Source: an uncultured Bacilli bacterium (GTDB lineage: Bacteria; Bacillota_I; Bacilli_A; RF39; UBA660). From it: a stretch of DNA of 64,000 bases. The stretch covers positions 195,133-259,132 of the forward strand of contig CAJUTK010000002.1 in assembly GCA_910589375.1 (NCBI GenBank), given 5' to 3'. Within the stretch, counting starts at the first letter, position 1, and each line of letters opens with the position of its first letter. Below the pieces are notes generated by a model, which was not told where the DNA came from, did not search any database, and saw only the letters and a list, made by a program, of their open reading frames with translations. Below, in pieces: positions 42,873-50,931 of the stretch. Both the position numbers and the translations under genes were made by a program.

Positions 42873-44573
42873 ATGTACGAAGAAAGAAGAGAAAGTTTTT
42901 CAGTTAGAGATTTAATTTTACAAGTATTATTTATTGTACTATTTGTCTTTATCCTAATTTTAATATTCCCAACTAAGGGATATATGAAAAAGTATATTGA
43001 TAAGAATGGTAAGGACACAGGTACTAATACTACAGTTGTCGAATCAAACTTTGATGTAGACCAATTAGCAGCATTATACAATCAAATTTTTGCTAATAAT
43101 GTTGTAGCTATGAAAGAAGCAGCTATTGGATATTACACTACAGATAGATTACCTGCTAAAGTAGGTGAATCTGATAAGATGACTTTACAACAAATGTATG
43201 ATAAGCATTTAGTGTTAAAGTTAACAGATAAAAATGGAAATGCATGTGATGTAACAAAATCTTATGTATCTGTAACAAAATATGAAAATGAATACCAAAT
43301 GAAGGTAAACTTAAGTTGTGGTGGAGAAGAAGATTATATCATCGTATACTTAGGATGCTATGATTATTGTGATGCAACAGGTGTTTGTGAAAAACAAACT
43401 CCAACAAAACCAACTACACCATCTAAACCAAGTAAACCAACAACAAATACAACAGTAAATAAAGTTACAAATATTACAAATAATTATTATTATGAAAATT
43501 GTGATTGTGAAAAACCAAAATATTACTGTTCAATTGTAAATGGTAAATATTATGATGCAAGTGGAAATGAAGTTAACAAAGAAGCTTATGAAAAAGCTTG
43601 TAATGAAGAAAAAAGATATTATTGTTCAATTGTAAATGGTAAATATTATGACGATAAAGGTCAAGTAGTAAGCAAAGCTGAATATGATAAAGCTTGTTCA
43701 CAACCAACTAAAAAATACATTTGTGAATATAAGAAAGTAACAAATGGTGAGTGGGGACCATATGGACCTTGGTCAGAATGGACTACTACTAAACTTACTG
43801 AAAATAATAATACACAAGTAGATACAAAAACAGAACAAGTTGTAACTGGTTATACTACTAAGAAAGTACAAACAGGTACAAAAACAGAAACTTATATATC
43901 AAACTATACAACTTCTAAGTATGTATCAGGATACACAACAGAAAAATATGTATCAGGTCATACTACAGAAAAATATATTTCAGGATATACAACGCAAAAA
44001 GTACAAACAGGTACTAAAAAAGTACAAATAGGAACTACAACAAAGACAACTACTAAAAAAGTTGCTGCAGGTACTAAAACCACTTATGTATCTTCTGGTT
44101 CAGGAACAACAATTCCAAATAATACAAGTGAATATACTTATGTAAAAACTGGTTCAACTCAATCTCAAAGTTGTTCAAGTTGTGCTACTGTAACTGTATA
44201 TACATGGGATGTATATAAACTTACAACAGTTTATAAAACAGAACAAGTAACAGAAACAGTACCAGTATATTCTGTACAACCAGTATATGAAACAAAACAA
44301 GTTCCAGTATACTCAACTAGACAAGTTCCAGTATACTCAACTAGACAAGTTCCAGTATACTCAACTAAGAAAACTCCAGTATATGCTACTAGACAAGTTC
44401 CAGTATACGATGAAGTAAAAACACCAGTTTATGGAACTCAAACTTACTACCGTTCAAGAACAAGAACTTATAGTGGAGGAAGTACAGATACAAAATGGAG
44501 TACATGTGATCCAGTTGATACTTCTTTAACAAGTCAAGGATATTATCAAACTGGTAATGTAAAGGAAGCATAA
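42873..44573 (+). CDS. membrane-anchored surface protein with Cys-rich module, proline/threonine linker and three families of tandem repeats
   Basis: N-terminal signal-anchor. Two YYCSIVNGKYYD...KAC repeats. Four YTT(E/Q)KY(V/I)SG repeats. At least six (R/K)QVPVYST repeats, three of them perfect 24 bp DNA copies. Promoter TTGACA-17-TAGGAT at 42812. Terminator at 44576-44600. Confidence 0.7.
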   Translation: MYEERRESFSVRDLILQVLFIVLFVFILILIFPTKGYMKKYIDKNGKDTGTNTTVVESNFDVDQLAALYNQIFANNVVAMKEAAIGYYTTDRLPAKVGESDKMTLQQMYDKHLVLKLTDKNGNACDVTKSYVSVTKYENEYQMKVNLSCGGEEDYIIVYLGCYDYCDATGVCEKQTPTKPTTPSKPSKPTTNTTVNKVTNITNNYYYENCDCEKPKYYCSIVNGKYYDASGNEVNKEAYEKACNEEKRYYCSIVNGKYYDDKGQVVSKAEYDKACSQPTKKYICEYKKVTNGEWGPYGPWSEWTTTKLTENNNTQVDTKTEQVVTGYTTKKVQTGTKTETYISNYTTSKYVSGYTTEKYVSGHTTEKYISGYTTQKVQTGTKKVQIGTTTKTTTKKVAAGTKTTYVSSGSGTTIPNNTSEYTYVKTGSTQSQSCSSCATVTVYTWDVYKLTTVYKTEQVTETVPVYSVQPVYETKQVPVYSTRQVPVYSTRQVPVYSTKKTPVYATRQVPVYDEVKTPVYGTQTYYRSRTRTYSGGSTDTKWSTCDPVDTSLTSQGYYQTGNVKEA

Positions 44574-44676: not shown

Positions 44677-45096
44677 GTGAAAGGGACATATCTATTTGAC
44701 TATGTAAATGAAAATGAATTTAAAAAATTAGAACGTTCTTTAAAAAAGTATAACATGCTTGCTTATAAGAAGTTATATTTTGAGTATTACCCAGCCTTAA
44801 AAGAGGGAAATTTCCTAGGAAAACTGATTGCTACTAACAAAACAAATGGTACTAAGACATATGAGTTAAAGCTTCCTACAGATGCCCTATTTTCAAAGGT
44901 GCATGGCGATATTAAACTATATTATCTAGTTTACGAGAATGAAAAAATTGTAATGTTGGACAAGTTTGAGCCAATGGATATCTTAAGTGAAGGTCATGCA
45001 AGTGAATTAGTAACTTACAAGGGAGTTATGGTTTCAAAACAACATTCTGATAAAGATATGTTTAAGATTAACTTATTAAATATGTTAGATAAATAA
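44677..45096 (+). CDS. hypothetical protein (GTG start)
   Basis: 139 aa. GGAAGGGG RBS. Followed by the bidirectional terminator AAACCAGTttaatACTGGTTT at 45098-45125. Confidence 0.45.
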   Translation: MKGTYLFDYVNENEFKKLERSLKKYNMLAYKKLYFEYYPALKEGNFLGKLIATNKTNGTKTYELKLPTDALFSKVHGDIKLYYLVYENEKIVMLDKFEPMDILSEGHASELVTYKGVMVSKQHSDKDMFKINLLNMLDK

Positions 45097-45120
45097 AAAC
45101 CAGTTTAATACTGGTTTTTT

Positions 45121-45819
45121 TTATGAATTTAAAATCCAATCAACAATTGCACTTTTTATTTGATAGTATTCTTCTTCTTCAAATTGCATATTAGCAATAC
45201 AATATTTTTTATTTGCAATATGGGAACAAAAGATGCATTCATGTAAGTTGAAGCAGTCCTGAATAAATAGGGAATTGCTTACTTTATTAGAACATATTAC
45301 ATGATAACTGTTACTACAATCTTTTGAATCATCTACTTTGATGCAGAAAAGGGATGAAGAGCTTCTCTGAGATGCTAGTAGAAACTCACTATTACCACAA
45401 GAGTCACAGTAAATAAGATTTTTAGAATCACTACAATCTGTTGATTGATAGATGTTTTCACAGCGATAGATAGTGTCACTTTTCACTACATTAATAGAGT
45501 CATAAACTCTTTCTGTTGTAGTTAGATTTACTTGATTCCATATATCAATAATTTCTTGAAGGTTAGATACATTTTGTTTAGGAAGCATCCAACCTATATC
45601 TGTATCTCTTTTTTCCATATTTTCTAAAGTAATAAACTTTCCACTACTAATAGCATCTGCCCAAGTAATTTCATTAGTAGTAGAATCATTTACTTTTTTA
45701 GGTAGTTTTACATCAAATGCAAATTTTTCTAAGATTGTATCTAATGAGTATTGGTTTTGCTTTTCAAAAATATTTTGAAATATTTTATTAACGATAGTGA
45801 TAGCTACAGCATCATTCAT
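45121..45819 (-). CDS. cysteine-repeat protein (about 20 Cys in 5 degenerate repeats), second gene of the HerA-like operon
   Basis: AGGAGGA RBS. 8 nt overlap with the upstream ATPase gene. C-terminal half has repeating C-x(3-8)-DC-S-x-S/N modules. No known family recognised. Confidence 0.55.
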   Translation of the reverse strand: MNDAVAITIVNKIFQNIFEKQNQYSLDTILEKFAFDVKLPKKVNDSTTNEITWADAISSGKFITLENMEKRDTDIGWMLPKQNVSNLQEIIDIWNQVNLTTTERVYDSINVVKSDTIYRCENIYQSTDCSDSKNLIYCDSCGNSEFLLASQRSSSSLFCIKVDDSKDCSNSYHVICSNKVSNSLFIQDCFNLHECIFCSHIANKKYCIANMQFEEEEYYQIKSAIVDWILNS

Positions 45820-47665
45820 TTTTTATTCCTCCTCTTTGTGATGAATGTGTAATTAAAATATCTTTTAAATTGGTTGTGTTTCCAATAGAAAATTCTATTT
45901 TCTTGTTATCTTTTTGGGATGAAGAAATAGGGGAATCTATTGTTTTTTCTTTTAATCTTGGAATACTTTCAAAGTTCATAGTTTGTGCTTTAAAGGCGGG
46001 GAGTAATATTCCATTAGCATTTATTCTAATAATACATTCTCGGTTATTTAATTCTGTTAACATTTTCGTCTTCGCTTCTACTGTATCTTCTAAAGGAACT
46101 TTCATAGGTAGGTGATTTACTAATAGCGCCGCATCCGTTCTAGAAACGCGAAATAAATAATAGTTTATAGTATTAGCAAATATAGAATCTTTTAAATTAT
46201 CTGATACTTGGTTAAAATATTGACTAGCTAAAATAAGAGATAAATTATATTTTCTTGCTTCAGATAGAAAACGTGATAAAATAGGATTTTCAACAACAGC
46301 AACTTCATCGACAATAAAGATAATATGCTCAGAAAATGAATAAGATTGAACAAGTGTAAGCAACTTCTGCATAATTAATCCTGAAATAGTTTTTACACTT
46401 TTATCTCCAAGCTTTGTTTTATCTAAAGAGAAAATGGTTAGAAAGTTATCTTGAATAGTCTCTTGTAAGGAAAAATCATTATTTTCTTGATTAAAGACAG
46501 GAATCATTTCCATTTCATCAATGAAAGAAATAATAGGGGAGATTGCCTCACCATAGGACTTTGTTTTTAAGTCATTAAAGTCAGATAAGAAAAAGTCTAT
46601 TACACTACTTGGTAAAAGTTTTTCTTGCTGCTTTAAAAGAAAAGTCCTGTATTCTGTATCTAGTAAGACCTTTCTTAGTGTATGAAACGTAAAATTATTA
46701 CTAGATAATAGTAAATGGATAGAGTGCCTTAATACCCTCTCTAGTTTAGAATTATATTGATCAGCTATTAAAGACTTAAATAATTCTAGTAATAATTCAG
46801 TAGAGGATATTGTATCATTTTGATTATTATGAAATAGGTTAATACTATTAAAATTATTTTTAAAGTCGATTACTTTACCAATACCTCCAATATCATTTTC
46901 TAAAGCAGCATGTGGGTCTATAATTACTACTTTGTATTGATTTCTAAACTGTATATTTTTATAGATATTGTGAATAAATAAACTAATAAATTTAGACTTT
47001 CCAGCTCCACTAGCACCCAAAATCAAAGAGTGTTTATGAAATTCGTAGTTATTTAGTTTTAAATAAAAATCTCCTTGTAGATAGGGAAATGTATTTACCT
47101 TTACAAGCGAAGATGTCGTTTCACTTTGTAATAAGTGTAGAATTTTTTGTATATCTAAATATTTAGGTACACTTTTATAGAAAAAACGTGCGTTTTTATC
47201 AAGATTTAAAGTTAAGATGGATGTAGGATTAGAAAATAGATTTCTATGTCTATAAACAACACTCTCTTTTTCTAAGTAAAAATAGACTTTAGAGCGGATT
47301 TTAGTGTTACTTAATTTACAAAATTCAATTTCAATATATTTTAGTTTTTTTCTTTTTTTTATTTCAAAGTATTCTACTATATCAATCAGTTTATTTTCTA
47401 TAATAAAAGTAGGTAAAGAATAGATTGGATTTTCTATTTTTATTTCTTCAGTTTGTTTTAAAATAAAATCAGATAAATTATGTATGGTAGAGGGGAGTGT
47501 GTATTTTGTTTTTACATAGTAGCGAATTTCATTATTATTAATTGCAATTGTTAATTTCCATTTTTTAAATATCCCTTGATAATTGGAAATACTTCTTATA
47601 AATTCTAGCCATTTCTCTCCCTCTATGTTACAACTGGCTAAGAAAATTTCTGACGTTAACCCCAT
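45812..47665 (-). CDS. HerA/FtsK-superfamily (DUF87/VirB4-like) P-loop ATPase
   Basis: Walker A LILGASGAGKSKF followed by VVIIDPHAALE (typical of HerA/DUF87). Walker B IIFIVDEVAVV. C-terminal EARKYNLSLILASQ matching E(A/G)RK(Y/F)G..L.LATQ. ATG at 47665 with GAGGTGA RBS; the TTG at 47731 lies in the terminator hairpin. Confidence 0.7.
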   Translation of the reverse strand: MGLTSEIFLASCNIEGEKWLEFIRSISNYQGIFKKWKLTIAINNNEIRYYVKTKYTLPSTIHNLSDFILKQTEEIKIENPIYSLPTFIIENKLIDIVEYFEIKKRKKLKYIEIEFCKLSNTKIRSKVYFYLEKESVVYRHRNLFSNPTSILTLNLDKNARFFYKSVPKYLDIQKILHLLQSETTSSLVKVNTFPYLQGDFYLKLNNYEFHKHSLILGASGAGKSKFISLFIHNIYKNIQFRNQYKVVIIDPHAALENDIGGIGKVIDFKNNFNSINLFHNNQNDTISSTELLLELFKSLIADQYNSKLERVLRHSIHLLLSSNNFTFHTLRKVLLDTEYRTFLLKQQEKLLPSSVIDFFLSDFNDLKTKSYGEAISPIISFIDEMEMIPVFNQENNDFSLQETIQDNFLTIFSLDKTKLGDKSVKTISGLIMQKLLTLVQSYSFSEHIIFIVDEVAVVENPILSRFLSEARKYNLSLILASQYFNQVSDNLKDSIFANTINYYLFRVSRTDAALLVNHLPMKVPLEDTVEAKTKMLTELNNRECIIRINANGILLPAFKAQTMNFESIPRLKEKTIDSPISSSQKDNKKIEFSIGNTTNLKDILITHSSQRGGIKNE

Positions 47666-47711
47666 AAAACCGTCACCTCGATATGTACTATAGCAGAAAA
47701 ACAATAAAAAA

Positions 47712-47744
47712 AACTGACTTTTTATATTCAAAAAAAGTCAGTTA
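47712..47744 (-). terminator. hairpin AACTGACTTTTT-N7-AAAAAGTCAGTT with T-run (minus-strand sense) following the AraC-family gene
   Basis: Perfect 12 bp stem seen in the sequence. Separates the regulator from the ATPase operon. Confidence 0.5.
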
Positions 47745-48539
47745 TTCAATAGCTACTAAAAAATCGGTTATTTCATCATGATAGTATTCTAGTTCTGGTA
47801 TTGCTTTTAAGTTATATTTACAGCTTGGTAAAAATTCTAGATAAAACTTTTGAGAAATATCATGAATGTCTTCTGCTTCTTGGCTAGGAATTCTAAAAGA
47901 AAGCCATTTGCTAGCAGGAATAATAATTTTTTCAAAATCAGGTATGTATTTATCATATAAAATAAAATAATAATTGCATTGAAGATGTTCTTCTTCCTCA
48001 TAAGAAATCATAGCATAGGGAATATCACCGTAAGAATCTTTATATTGTTTTTCCATTTCTATAAAAAACTTAGGGGCATCTTCTTGAATATGATCGTTAT
48101 CAGTAGCTACACCTTTTCCATATACTATCATTTCTTCACGTTCTACAATCTGATATTCCATATCTTTTATAGAAGTATCAATTTCATTTAAAACAATTCT
48201 AGGAAAGTTCTTAAGAATAGTTGTATTTGTTATTTTACTAGGATTGATGCCATGAAAAGAAGAGAAAGCTCTAGAGAAGGCTGTAGCACTCTCATATTGG
48301 TATTTAAGCGCTACATCAATGATTTTTTCATTATTAGTAATAAAATCATATCCAGCACATGATAAACGTCTTTTTCTAATATAATCTGATAAAGTAATAG
48401 TTGTAAGCAGTGAAAATATTCTTTGCATAGTATAAGAGTTTACTCCCATTATACGAGCTAAAACATTATAATCTATTTTCTCTTCTAAATGATTATCAAT
48501 ATATTCTGTAATTTCGTTTATTTTTTGATAGATATTCAT
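47742..48539 (-). CDS. AraC-family transcriptional regulator with C-terminal GyrI-like effector-binding domain
   Basis: N-terminal AraC HTH (IDYNVLARIMGVNSYTMQRIFSLL...ESATAFSRAFSSFHGINPSK). C-terminal about 150 aa resembles GyrI-like small-molecule binding domains. Confidence 0.7.
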   Translation of the reverse strand: MNIYQKINEITEYIDNHLEEKIDYNVLARIMGVNSYTMQRIFSLLTTITLSDYIRKRRLSCAGYDFITNNEKIIDVALKYQYESATAFSRAFSSFHGINPSKITNTTILKNFPRIVLNEIDTSIKDMEYQIVEREEMIVYGKGVATDNDHIQEDAPKFFIEMEKQYKDSYGDIPYAMISYEEEEHLQCNYYFILYDKYIPDFEKIIIPASKWLSFRIPSQEAEDIHDISQKFYLEFLPSCKYNLKAIPELEYYHDEITDFLVAIE

Positions 48540-48614
48540 ATTATCACCAATATTATTATACCATAAAATAGTTAGAGTGTTCTTTTTATAAGAAAAACTA
48601 GCAAGACTTGCTAG

Positions 48615-49034
48615 TTATTTTTCTTTTGCTAGAGTAGTATACTCAGCTAACATAGCTAATTCTTCGTCTGCTTTTTTTTGAAAGTAACTAGCTAATTCTT
48701 TTAAATATTTTTTTCCGAAACGAGTGGTTAAGAAAATTCTTAATTCTTGATCTAGTACTGTAGGTGGATATTCCCCACATAAACCGGCATTATGCGTGCT
48801 AAGACAAAAGTCATTAACTCTATAAGTATCTAAAATATGTATCCCATCTCCACTACTGATGAGGGCATATCTATCACCATTTAAGTCTTTTCGATCCCTC
48901 TCTTTTGAAACTTTTACCCAAGTTGCAGCTCTAGGTGGTTGCATTTCGCTTTTTTTTCGATAATGCTGTGTACTGAAATTAATTAGGGCAACCCATTCCT
49001 CATCTGTTAATTCGTTAATAAACTTGAAATCCAT
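48615..49034 (-). CDS. hypothetical protein
   Basis: 139 aa ORF. No motif recognised. Confidence 0.4.
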   Translation of the reverse strand: MDFKFINELTDEEWVALINFSTQHYRKKSEMQPPRAATWVKVSKERDRKDLNGDRYALISSGDGIHILDTYRVNDFCLSTHNAGLCGEYPPTVLDQELRIFLTTRFGKKYLKELASYFQKKADEELAMLAEYTTLAKEK

Positions 49035-50763: not shown

Positions 50764-50848
50764 TGGTGCGAGTGAAGGGACTTGAACCCCCATGCCTTGC
50801 GGCGCTAGATCCTAAGTCTAGTGCGTCTGCCAATTTCGCCACACTCGC
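50764..50848 (-). tRNA. tRNA-Leu (anticodon TAG)
   Basis: Reverse complement folds as GCGAGTG acceptor, anticodon loop CTTAGGA, long variable arm, GGTTCAAGTCC T-loop and encoded CCA. 85 nt. Confidence 0.85.
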
Positions 50849-50854
50849 AGAAAA

Positions 50855-50931
50855 TGGTGGATCTTGTAGGACTCGAACCTACGACCGCCCGGTTATGAGC
50901 CGGATGCTCTAACCAACTGAGCTAAAGATCC
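50855..50931 (-). tRNA. tRNA with CAT anticodon (elongator Met or lysidine-modified Ile2; not the initiator)
   Basis: Reverse complement GGATCTTTAGCTCAGTTGGTTAGAGCATCCGGCTCATAACCGGGCGGTCGTAGGTTCGAGTCCTACAAGATCCACCA. The 1:72 pair is G:C, so it is not an initiator. D-loop resembles Ile/Ala-type tRNAs. Confidence 0.8.

Follow-up and report, generated by a model that had tools for sequence, protein, structure and literature searches.

A 64,000-nucleotide (nt) stretch of DNA from an uncultured Bacilli bacterium (GenBank assembly GCA_910589375.1, contig CAJUTK010000002.1), referred to here at its full length as the window, contains three consecutive minus-strand genes that encode a regulator, an ATPase, and a partner protein. 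The regulator gene (47742..48539, minus strand) specifies a 265-amino-acid (aa) protein with AraC-type helix-turn-helix (HTH) and GyrI-like/Cass2 domains, assigned by Pfam and by synteny in 31 loci. It is followed by the gene for a soluble 617-aa P-loop ATPase of the FtsK/HerA/VirD4 superfamily (45812..47665, minus strand), assigned by the Pfam families DUF87 and TrwB_AAD_bind, and by an open reading frame (ORF) for an acidic partner of 232 aa (45121..45819, minus strand). A mechanical ORF list begins the ATPase at an upstream TTG; the ATG at 47665, which gives 617 aa, was taken as the start because homologs are 616 to 620 aa long. No transmembrane segments were found in the regulator, the ATPase, or the partner. 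The highest 19-residue Kyte-Doolittle mean in the ATPase was 1.32, in agreement with an earlier interpretation of this region made from its letters (the sequence-only reading), which had described the ATPase as lacking such segments.

The same reading had proposed a translationally coupled two-gene operon with its own ribosome binding sites (RBSs) and bracketing hairpins, and each of these elements was recovered. The ORFs confirm that the ATPase and partner genes overlap by 8 nt, with start and stop codons overlapping as ATGAATGA. The ATPase gene has the RBS GAGGTGA (47673..47679, minus strand), conserved 7 to 9 nt ahead of the start codon, and the partner gene has GAGGAGG (45828..45834, minus strand), which lies within the 3' end of the ATPase gene, 8 nt before the partner ATG. 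Upstream of the operon is an inverted repeat followed by a T-run, (A)ACTGAC-N18-GTCAGT(T) (47712..47743, minus strand), a terminator-like site whose sequence is conserved in 20 Bacilli loci. Downstream is a predicted intrinsic terminator for the ATPase-partner operon with a 10-bp stem and a T-rich tail, 5 T in 8 nt (45095..45119, minus strand). In total, 6 terminator-like sites combining a hairpin with a T-run were observed in the region, compared to 1.2 expected.

A scan for the partner across one genome per GTDB species returned 51 loci, and the ATPase gene lay directly upstream of the partner gene on the same strand in 49 to 50 of them, a co-occurrence that the sequence-only reading had listed as something to be checked. 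In each of the 50 loci, the two genes met at a junction of between −56 and +8 nt. The order regulator-ATPase-partner was kept on the same strand in 31 Bacilli loci, with the regulator one gene farther away in a few more, and loci that lacked the AraC gene had no conserved third gene upstream. Pairwise identities of ATPase and partner were correlated at r = 0.90 (47 loci from Bacilli and Patescibacteria), and the corresponding coefficients for the regulator were 0.81 against the ATPase and 0.85 against the partner. An AraC/GyrI regulator had been reported earlier as an adjacent gene; it is present, but it is not a mere neighbor, since it is a conserved and co-evolving third gene in Bacilli.

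The partner was the most conserved of the three proteins, with a mean identity of 0.69, compared to 0.58 for the regulator and 0.54 for the ATPase. Against the two closest relatives of the window (L001 and L003, respectively), identities were 0.91 and 0.84 for the partner, 0.83 and 0.72 for the ATPase, 0.80 and 0.78 for the regulator, and 0.87 and 0.87 for cysteinyl-tRNA synthetase (CysRS). The partner is thus about as conserved as CysRS in these comparisons. Within the species, a look-up by a neighboring 139-aa protein identified 8 distinct places from 22 contigs, and all three genes were at the same site in 8 of the 8. These genes had been pictured as part of an accessory, tRNA-linked island, and variable presence among relatives had been suggested as a test; the site is fixed, and presence does not vary within the species. 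The ATPase gene was split in two of the eight syntenic strains (422 plus 190 aa in L145, 8136-9945, and 522 plus 115 aa in L149, 5651-7517), reflecting either inactivation in some strains or assembly error.

Identity to the same two relatives also shifts sharply near window position 45100, between the partner gene and a 139-aa ORF at 44677-45096. To the left of this point the sequences are near-identical (0.99 for the 139-aa ORF and 1.00 and 0.98 for an 805-aa protein), and the three-gene unit and the genes to its right fall to 0.55 to 0.91. Because identity changes so sharply there, the pattern suggests a recombination boundary at about 45100.

The ATPase carries the motifs GASGAGKS, IIDPH, IVDE, and EARKYNLSLILASQ. 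These motifs, which the sequence-only reading had used to place the 617-aa protein in the HerA/FtsK superfamily, are present and invariant in 56 homologs (G217, G220, G222, K223, S224, D250 to H252, D453, E454, R471, K472, and Q482). The superfamily placement held in profile searches as well, with 35 bits against Pfam DUF87 (cut-off, 23.2) and 26.9 bits against TrwB_AAD_bind (cut-off, 20.5), and weak matches below threshold to TraG-D_C and FtsK_SpoIIIE. Walker A, Walker B (hhhhDE), the R/K and Q motifs, and the DUF87 match that together define the FtsK/HerA superfamily were all found. The protein failed as a full-length HerA, scoring 16.2 bits against the NCBIfam HerA equivalog model NF040819 (cut-off, 970), and was far under the cut-off of the NCBIfam EccCb model. 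In PADLOC the best match was mad8 (9.5e-16), which is reached by the ATPase domain alone, followed by weak HerA models, and in PHROG it was phrog_5156, a family of unknown function (1e-19). A profile of 56 ATPase sequences gave marginal matches to HerA in the PDB, over the Walker A region only (E, 0.055 to 0.95), and the best structural matches, though weak, were to the type IV coupling proteins DotL, Cag-beta, and TrwB.

The N-terminal domain of about 200 aa is family specific and basic (isoelectric point [pI], 9.35, compared to 8.95 for the whole protein). Residues 1 to 200 had no Pfam match, in a domain that was not searched separately, and AlphaFold2 gave them a mixed alpha/beta fold with a predicted local distance difference test (pLDDT) score of about 75 to 88. 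Between Walker A and Walker B there is a helical insertion, with helices spanning residues 282 to 384 in the AlphaFold2 model. The ATPase thus represents a separate, soluble clade within the FtsK/HerA/VirD4 superfamily, distinct both from HerA in the strict sense and from membrane-anchored coupling proteins.

The partner had no match in Pfam, NCBIfam, or PADLOC, consistent with the earlier statement that it is not Sir2, DUF4297, or NurA. Scans of Pfam, NCBIfam, PADLOC, and PHROG revealed no nuclease, Sir2, TIR, or protease domain, the one PHROG match being weak (9.5e-5). A 100-sequence profile found no sequence match in the PDB, and Foldseek comparison of the partner model with BFVD viral structures returned nothing below E = 2.8. 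The family is large, with about 1,400 clusters at 50% identity, of which all source names seen were “hypothetical protein,” and its length is nearly constant over about 1,600 clusters. An AlphaFold2 model built from a 100-sequence alignment (pLDDT, 85.3; predicted template modeling score, 0.78) has four parts: an alpha/beta domain predicted with confidence at residues 1 to 100 (pLDDT above 90), a generic beta-solenoid at about residues 100 to 210 (pLDDT, 64 to 85), a Cys/His-rich cap at the solenoid end, and a C-terminal helix at residues 215 to 231. Counted as separate domains, the solenoid covers about residues 100 to 188 and the cap residues 188 to 218. The protein is acidic, with a pI of 4.7 and a net charge of about −11.

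The sequence-only reading had counted about 20 cysteines in this protein and proposed a zinc-ribbon-repeat effector. There are 11 (residues 120, 129, 138, 141, 159, 168, 176, 189, 195, 198, and 207), and only 4 to 5 are conserved. Conservation across Bacilli and Saccharibacteria is concentrated at C189, C195, C198, H200, and C207, with C168 kept at 94%, and in Saccharibacteria S, V, or W stands in place of the remaining cysteines. The Cys repeats form rungs of the beta-solenoid in the AlphaFold2 model and are therefore not zinc ribbons; with few conserved cysteines and no repeated, conserved CxxC...CxxC knuckles, a zinc-ribbon ladder was rejected. The most conserved stretch of the protein, the cap at residues 188 to 218, reads DC-x5-C-x2-CSH-x6-CIANMQFEEEEY. 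The cap is the segment with the highest conservation in both bacterial and archaeal partners, and its conserved Cys and His residues may form one metal site.

Control of the unit is linked to the regulator, whose matches to HTH_18 (1.1e-13), Cass2 (9.7e-8), and GyrI-like (9.1e-6) all exceeded the Pfam cut-offs. It has the layout of Rob, in which two AraC-type HTH motifs precede a GyrI-like/Cass2 ligand-binding domain at the C terminus, and the closest solved relatives of its DNA-binding half are SoxS, RamA, MarA, and Rob. The 60 to 80 nt between the regulator stop codon and the ATPase start codon can be aligned over 20 Bacilli loci with proteins just 50 to 60% identical. The consensus of these loci is aCTGACAAAAyTGrT..aAAAAGTCAGTTTTTT, then 12 to 13 nt, TGnTATAnT, GAGGTGA, and the start codon, and the TGnTATAnT box keeps its 12- to 13-nt spacing past the T-run in the 20 loci. 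In the window this box is read as TGCTATAGT (47687..47695, minus strand), a putative extended −10 box for the ATPase-partner operon; no −35 hexamer was recognizable in this promoter.

The inverted repeat at 47712-47743 begins inside the regulator stop codon and is likely the terminator of the regulator gene, because it forms a 12-bp hairpin in the window. The CTGAC-N18-GTCAG arms pair over 12 bp in the window and its closest relatives but over just 5 to 6 bp in most loci, so the conserved feature is the sequence rather than the hairpin. The motif has a single match in the 64-kb window, compared to 0.13 expected, and an Rfam scan of this intergenic element found no RNA family. At class II promoters of MarA, SoxS, and Rob, the activator site overlaps the −35 box. 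By analogy, CTGAC-N18-GTCAG is a candidate operator at the −35 position, where it could double as an activator site. In another Bacilli genome (L052, 13814-16391), a second AraC/Cass2 paralog adjoins an ABC exporter, the usual type of target for such regulators, 4 kb from the three-gene unit, and so offers a helpful reference for the specificity of the regulator.

The ATPase-partner pair extends well beyond Bacilli. In Saccharibacteria the partner is 44 to 55% identical to that of the window, and full-length alignment of the ATPases gives 41% identity. One “Candidatus Microsaccharimonas” locus (L054, 7289-10699; GCA_049661065.1) has a 696-aa ATPase and a 232-aa partner, with a 188-aa ORF upstream of them; all three interrupt the ribosomal spc operon, where they separate rpsH (S8) from rplF (L6) on the same strand, and L055 is arranged alike. 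Such an interruption is unusual for a near-universal gene order. In several other Saccharibacteria the pair adjoins polA, with rpoD and dnaG close by, and on a 1.22-Mb bacterial contig it adjoins rpsG-rpsL-rpoC-rpoB.

A search of 1.84 billion representatives with the partner profile yielded 1371 clusters at E<=1e-3, of which 392 reached E<=1e-10. Single-domain members included some from “Candidatus Dojkabacteria” and other Patescibacteria. In many other clusters the partner domain occurred twice in tandem, in proteins about 525 aa long, two of which were annotated as “Candidatus Micrarchaeota.” The pair extends to archaea, because a full-length ATPase homolog exists in Micrarchaeota: locus L056 encodes a 559-aa ATPase that aligns with the window ATPase across 540 residues, the N-terminal domain among them (26% identity; E, 1e-46), followed by a 525-aa double partner and then by single-domain paralogs of 258 and 254 aa. 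A metagenome scan, which used alignment subset A4 in place of the overly diverse 64-sequence archaeal alignment A3, found 254 relatives, and 80 loci were retained. These loci contain tandem arrays of up to 7 to 9 partner paralogs. One ATPase is encoded in 20 of the loci, and regulators of the HTH_10 and AsnC types are encoded in 16 and 13, respectively. The archaeal arrays are made up of fused doubles (about 525 aa) or of pairs whose members are about 255 aa long.

Several arrays can share one contig of 372 to 629 kb, as in Ga0265297_10000030 (L101, L126, and L131) and Ga0210057_1000030 (L098 and L124). The array contigs are archaeal, because an NMD3 gene is present, and Micrarchaeota-like array loci include L084, L098, L103, L081, and L087. 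Micrarchaeota arrays fill tens of kilobases in genomes of roughly 1 Mb. AbiEi/AbiEii toxin-antitoxin pairs lie in or beside archaeal arrays at L082 (3728-5080), L067, L090, L105, and L121. A further array, L143 (3602-10535; GCA_021817125.1), consists of a 581-aa DUF87 ATPase and seven back-to-back paralogs of about 242 aa, with an HTH gene and a TnpB-like gene upstream.

Searches of mobile elements did not recover the partner. INPHARED phages (50,697 records, tblastn) had no relative of either protein, PLSDB (72,556 plasmids) had no partner match, and IMG/VR (2.9 million contigs, searched with bacterial and archaeal partner profiles) had no partner relative. The ATPase had distant, P-loop-only matches in PLSDB to type IV coupling-like proteins, at 21 to 27% identity. 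No relaxase, VirB4, integrase, capsid, or terminase gene was part of the conserved neighborhood, no membrane or channel gene was conserved beside the pair in 50 bacterial loci, and no conjugation genes, including those for type IV secretion or relaxases, were found in about 60 loci, which extends to other genomes what had been noted for the window. A published description of the ATPase-partner pair was not found in the literature. In a transposon sequencing study of Saccharibacteria, the DUF87 entry is limited to a 921-aa type IV coupling protein, and the pair is not identifiable (PMC10633639).

A 139-aa ORF just upstream of the regulator (48615-49034, minus strand) matches phrog_34465, of unknown function (E, 1e-6), has its own bidirectional hairpin (48596-48616), and is kept in close relatives only. 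On the other side, a 566-aa protein (42873-44573, plus strand) combines a hydrophobic anchor at the N terminus with duplicated segments that contain Cys (YYCSIVNGKYYD) and, at the C terminus, a run of repeats (VPVYSTRQ, TTEKYVSGY); its conservation is limited to the closest relatives, and it had no match in Pfam, NCBIfam, or PHROG. The two tRNA genes reported earlier are tRNA-Leu (50764-50848, minus strand) and tRNA-Met (50855-50931, minus strand), and the tRNA genes were rejected as an integration site marker for the three-gene unit. An Rfam match to “Plastid-ycf2 5UTR” antisense to tRNA-Met (50857-50931, plus strand; 42.9 bits against a gathering score of 65.7) is almost certainly spurious.

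The organization of the pair invites comparison with HerA-NurA, HerA-Sir2/Nezha, and HerA-DUF4297, in which a superfamily ATPase and a smaller partner likewise share an operon and presumably work together. The Walker A region and the following IIDPH of solved HerA chains (8wiv and 8ziq) align with the window ATPase. However, the partner here is a predicted beta-solenoid rather than NurA, Sir2, or DUF4297, a dedicated ligand-sensing activator is attached, and conservation is much above that of the usual defense pairs. The HAS-barrel of HerA was not detected by Pfam in residues 1 to 200 of the window ATPase, a domain that was not searched separately. Type IV coupling proteins (VirD4, TrwB, DotL, and Cag-beta) share with the ATPase a P-loop domain with an all-alpha insertion but differ in having an N-terminal membrane anchor, type IV secretion or relaxase genes, and close plasmid relatives. 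Likeness to the MADS system is confined to the mad8-like ATPase domain, and the window neighbors are not mad genes.

The regulator shares its two-domain layout (an AraC HTH pair and a GyrI-like domain) with Rob, and its candidate site would be placed like a class II marbox, overlapping the −35 position. In contrast to MarA, SoxS, and Rob, the target is an ATPase-solenoid operon rather than an efflux pump or redox gene, and whereas the marbox is an asymmetric 20-bp sequence, the candidate site is a palindrome with an 18-nt spacing. The partner, with ladders of small, polar, or Cys residues in its predicted repetitive solenoid, resembles other beta-solenoid proteins, such as left-handed beta-helix acyltransferases, the curli protein CsgA, insect and plant antifreeze proteins, pentapeptide-repeat DNA mimics, and bactofilins, and it shares an overall acidic character with the DNA-mimicking pentapeptide-repeat proteins.

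The interpretation we favor, tentatively and at somewhat less than an even chance, is that the three genes encode an inducible machine of the cytoplasm whose cellular role is conserved, built around an ancient, co-evolving ATPase-partner core. Such a machine fits better than a typical defense cassette because of the coupling and co-evolution of the two core genes, the constraint on the partner, the regulator and its cis element, the HTH regulators in many archaeal clusters, the core-gene surroundings, the spread across domains, and the absence from mobile-element collections. A conserved stress-response or maintenance role in small-genome organisms is more likely than dedicated phage defense. 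In this mechanism, the regulator would bind a small molecule through its GyrI-like domain and, with ligand bound, would activate the ATPase-partner operon in the class II style of MarA, SoxS, and Rob. The ATPase would assemble as a ring, like its superfamily relatives, and the partner would dock on it through the C-terminal cap and helix, its most conserved part, probably as a dimer; dimeric docking would explain the fused tandem duplicates or paired partners of archaea. The partner could then be the subunit that selects or mimics the substrate, with translocation or remodeling of a polymer left to the ring. By analogy with the superfamily, and because of the basic N-terminal domain, this polymer is most likely DNA.

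Several observations weigh against this interpretation. The flanks of the three-gene unit vary by locus and differ between genera, and the insertion in the ribosomal operon likewise has the look of a mobile cassette. Because the ATPase gene is split in two of eight strains, the protein may be dispensable; assembly errors could explain this too. In the window, CTGAC-N18-GTCAG could be a terminator only. Arrays of 7 to 9 paralogs are unexpected for a simple DNA-maintenance factor, and the ring, the docking mode, and the DNA substrate are drawn from superfamily analogy.

Defense against phages or other mobile elements, as the sequence-only reading proposed, is a minority possibility, and an unlikely one in our judgment. 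Modeled on HerA-Sir2 (Nezha) and HerA-DUF4297, it would have a HerA-like ring scaffold a new solenoid effector or sensor, either nonenzymatic or cryptically enzymatic. The architecture of a two-gene unit with an ATPase and a small partner agrees with this idea, as do the match of the ATPase domain to PADLOC mad8 (9.5e-16), its weak matches to HerA defense models, and the weak PHROG matches of both proteins. Flanks and chromosomal position vary between genera, an nSTAND/AAA gene and an Mbeg1-like gene adjoin one copy, AbiEi/AbiEii genes adjoin several archaeal arrays, and the expansion of paralogs could mean diversifying recognition. However, the partner lacks a PADLOC match or effector domain, evolves about as slowly as CysRS with little change in length, and belongs to a unit fixed at one site within the species. 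Other copies lie in ribosomal and RNA polymerase operon contexts, the activator is a dedicated Rob-like regulator of the xenobiotic type, and the unit is absent from collections of phages, plasmids, and viral contigs, where defense genes often travel. The sequence-only reading had itself named findings that would speak against defense, and several have now been made, in the CysRS-like conservation, the core-operon settings, and the Rob-related regulator.

The archaeal arrays point in a different direction, toward a machine for assembly or export in which the solenoid proteins are cargo or building blocks, such as fibre or scaffold subunits that stack end to end. The ATPase would load, extrude, or remodel the solenoids, recognizing the C-terminal cap and the acidic motif FEEEEY much as type IV coupling proteins and EssC/EccC read C-terminal signals. 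One ATPase followed by 2 to 9 tandem, often overlapping paralogs (Micrarchaeota, L143) would be expected of such a system, the C-terminal region is the most conserved and is signal-like, and DotL, Cag-beta, and TrwB are the best, if weak, structural matches of the ATPase. The known hosts of the pair are also small host-dependent cells that need contact structures. Against this, neither protein has a signal peptide or transmembrane segment, the 50 bacterial loci provide no conserved membrane or channel gene, and bacteria keep a single partner copy; we consider this explanation quite unlikely. The matches to Pfam TrwB_AAD_bind and, weakly, TraG-D_C, together with the distant P-loop-only matches to plasmid coupling-like proteins (21 to 27% identity), could instead mark the unit as a relic of a conjugative or viral element or as its cargo, with a coupling or packaging ATPase and an element-specific accessory partner, and archaeal HerA-like ATPases are often associated with viruses (PMC4158269). 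This origin is very improbable. Genes for a relaxase, VirB4, an integrase, a capsid, or a terminase are missing from the conserved neighborhood, the searched phage, plasmid, and IMG/VR records contain no partner, the ATPase lacks the transmembrane anchor of VirD4 and TrwB, and ATPase and partner distances track each other in a vertical-like manner.

The ATPase superfamily is already known, as is the kind of system in which a HerA-like ATPase is paired with a small partner. What appears to be undescribed is the partner family, its fixed tie to this ATPase clade, and its distribution together with Rob-like control. A broader and rather doubtful proposal is that the pair is an unrecognized cellular machine of lineages with very small genomes on both sides of the bacterial-archaeal divide (Patescibacteria, including Saccharibacteria and Dojkabacteria; the DPANN Micrarchaeota; and reduced gut Bacilli), neither a defense cassette nor a mobile-element remnant. 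If true, it would perform a task tied to that lifestyle, for example, the assembly of a contact structure or scaffold or the handling of DNA that is foreign or damaged. Saccharibacteria, other Patescibacteria, Micrarchaeota, and uncultured small-genome gut Bacilli offer few handles on conserved genes of unknown function, and the Bacilli version, with its Rob-like sensor, candidate operator, and clonable two-gene operon, provides an experimental entry. Solving its function would reveal either a new HerA-based defense architecture or a new conserved machine in host-dependent microbes.

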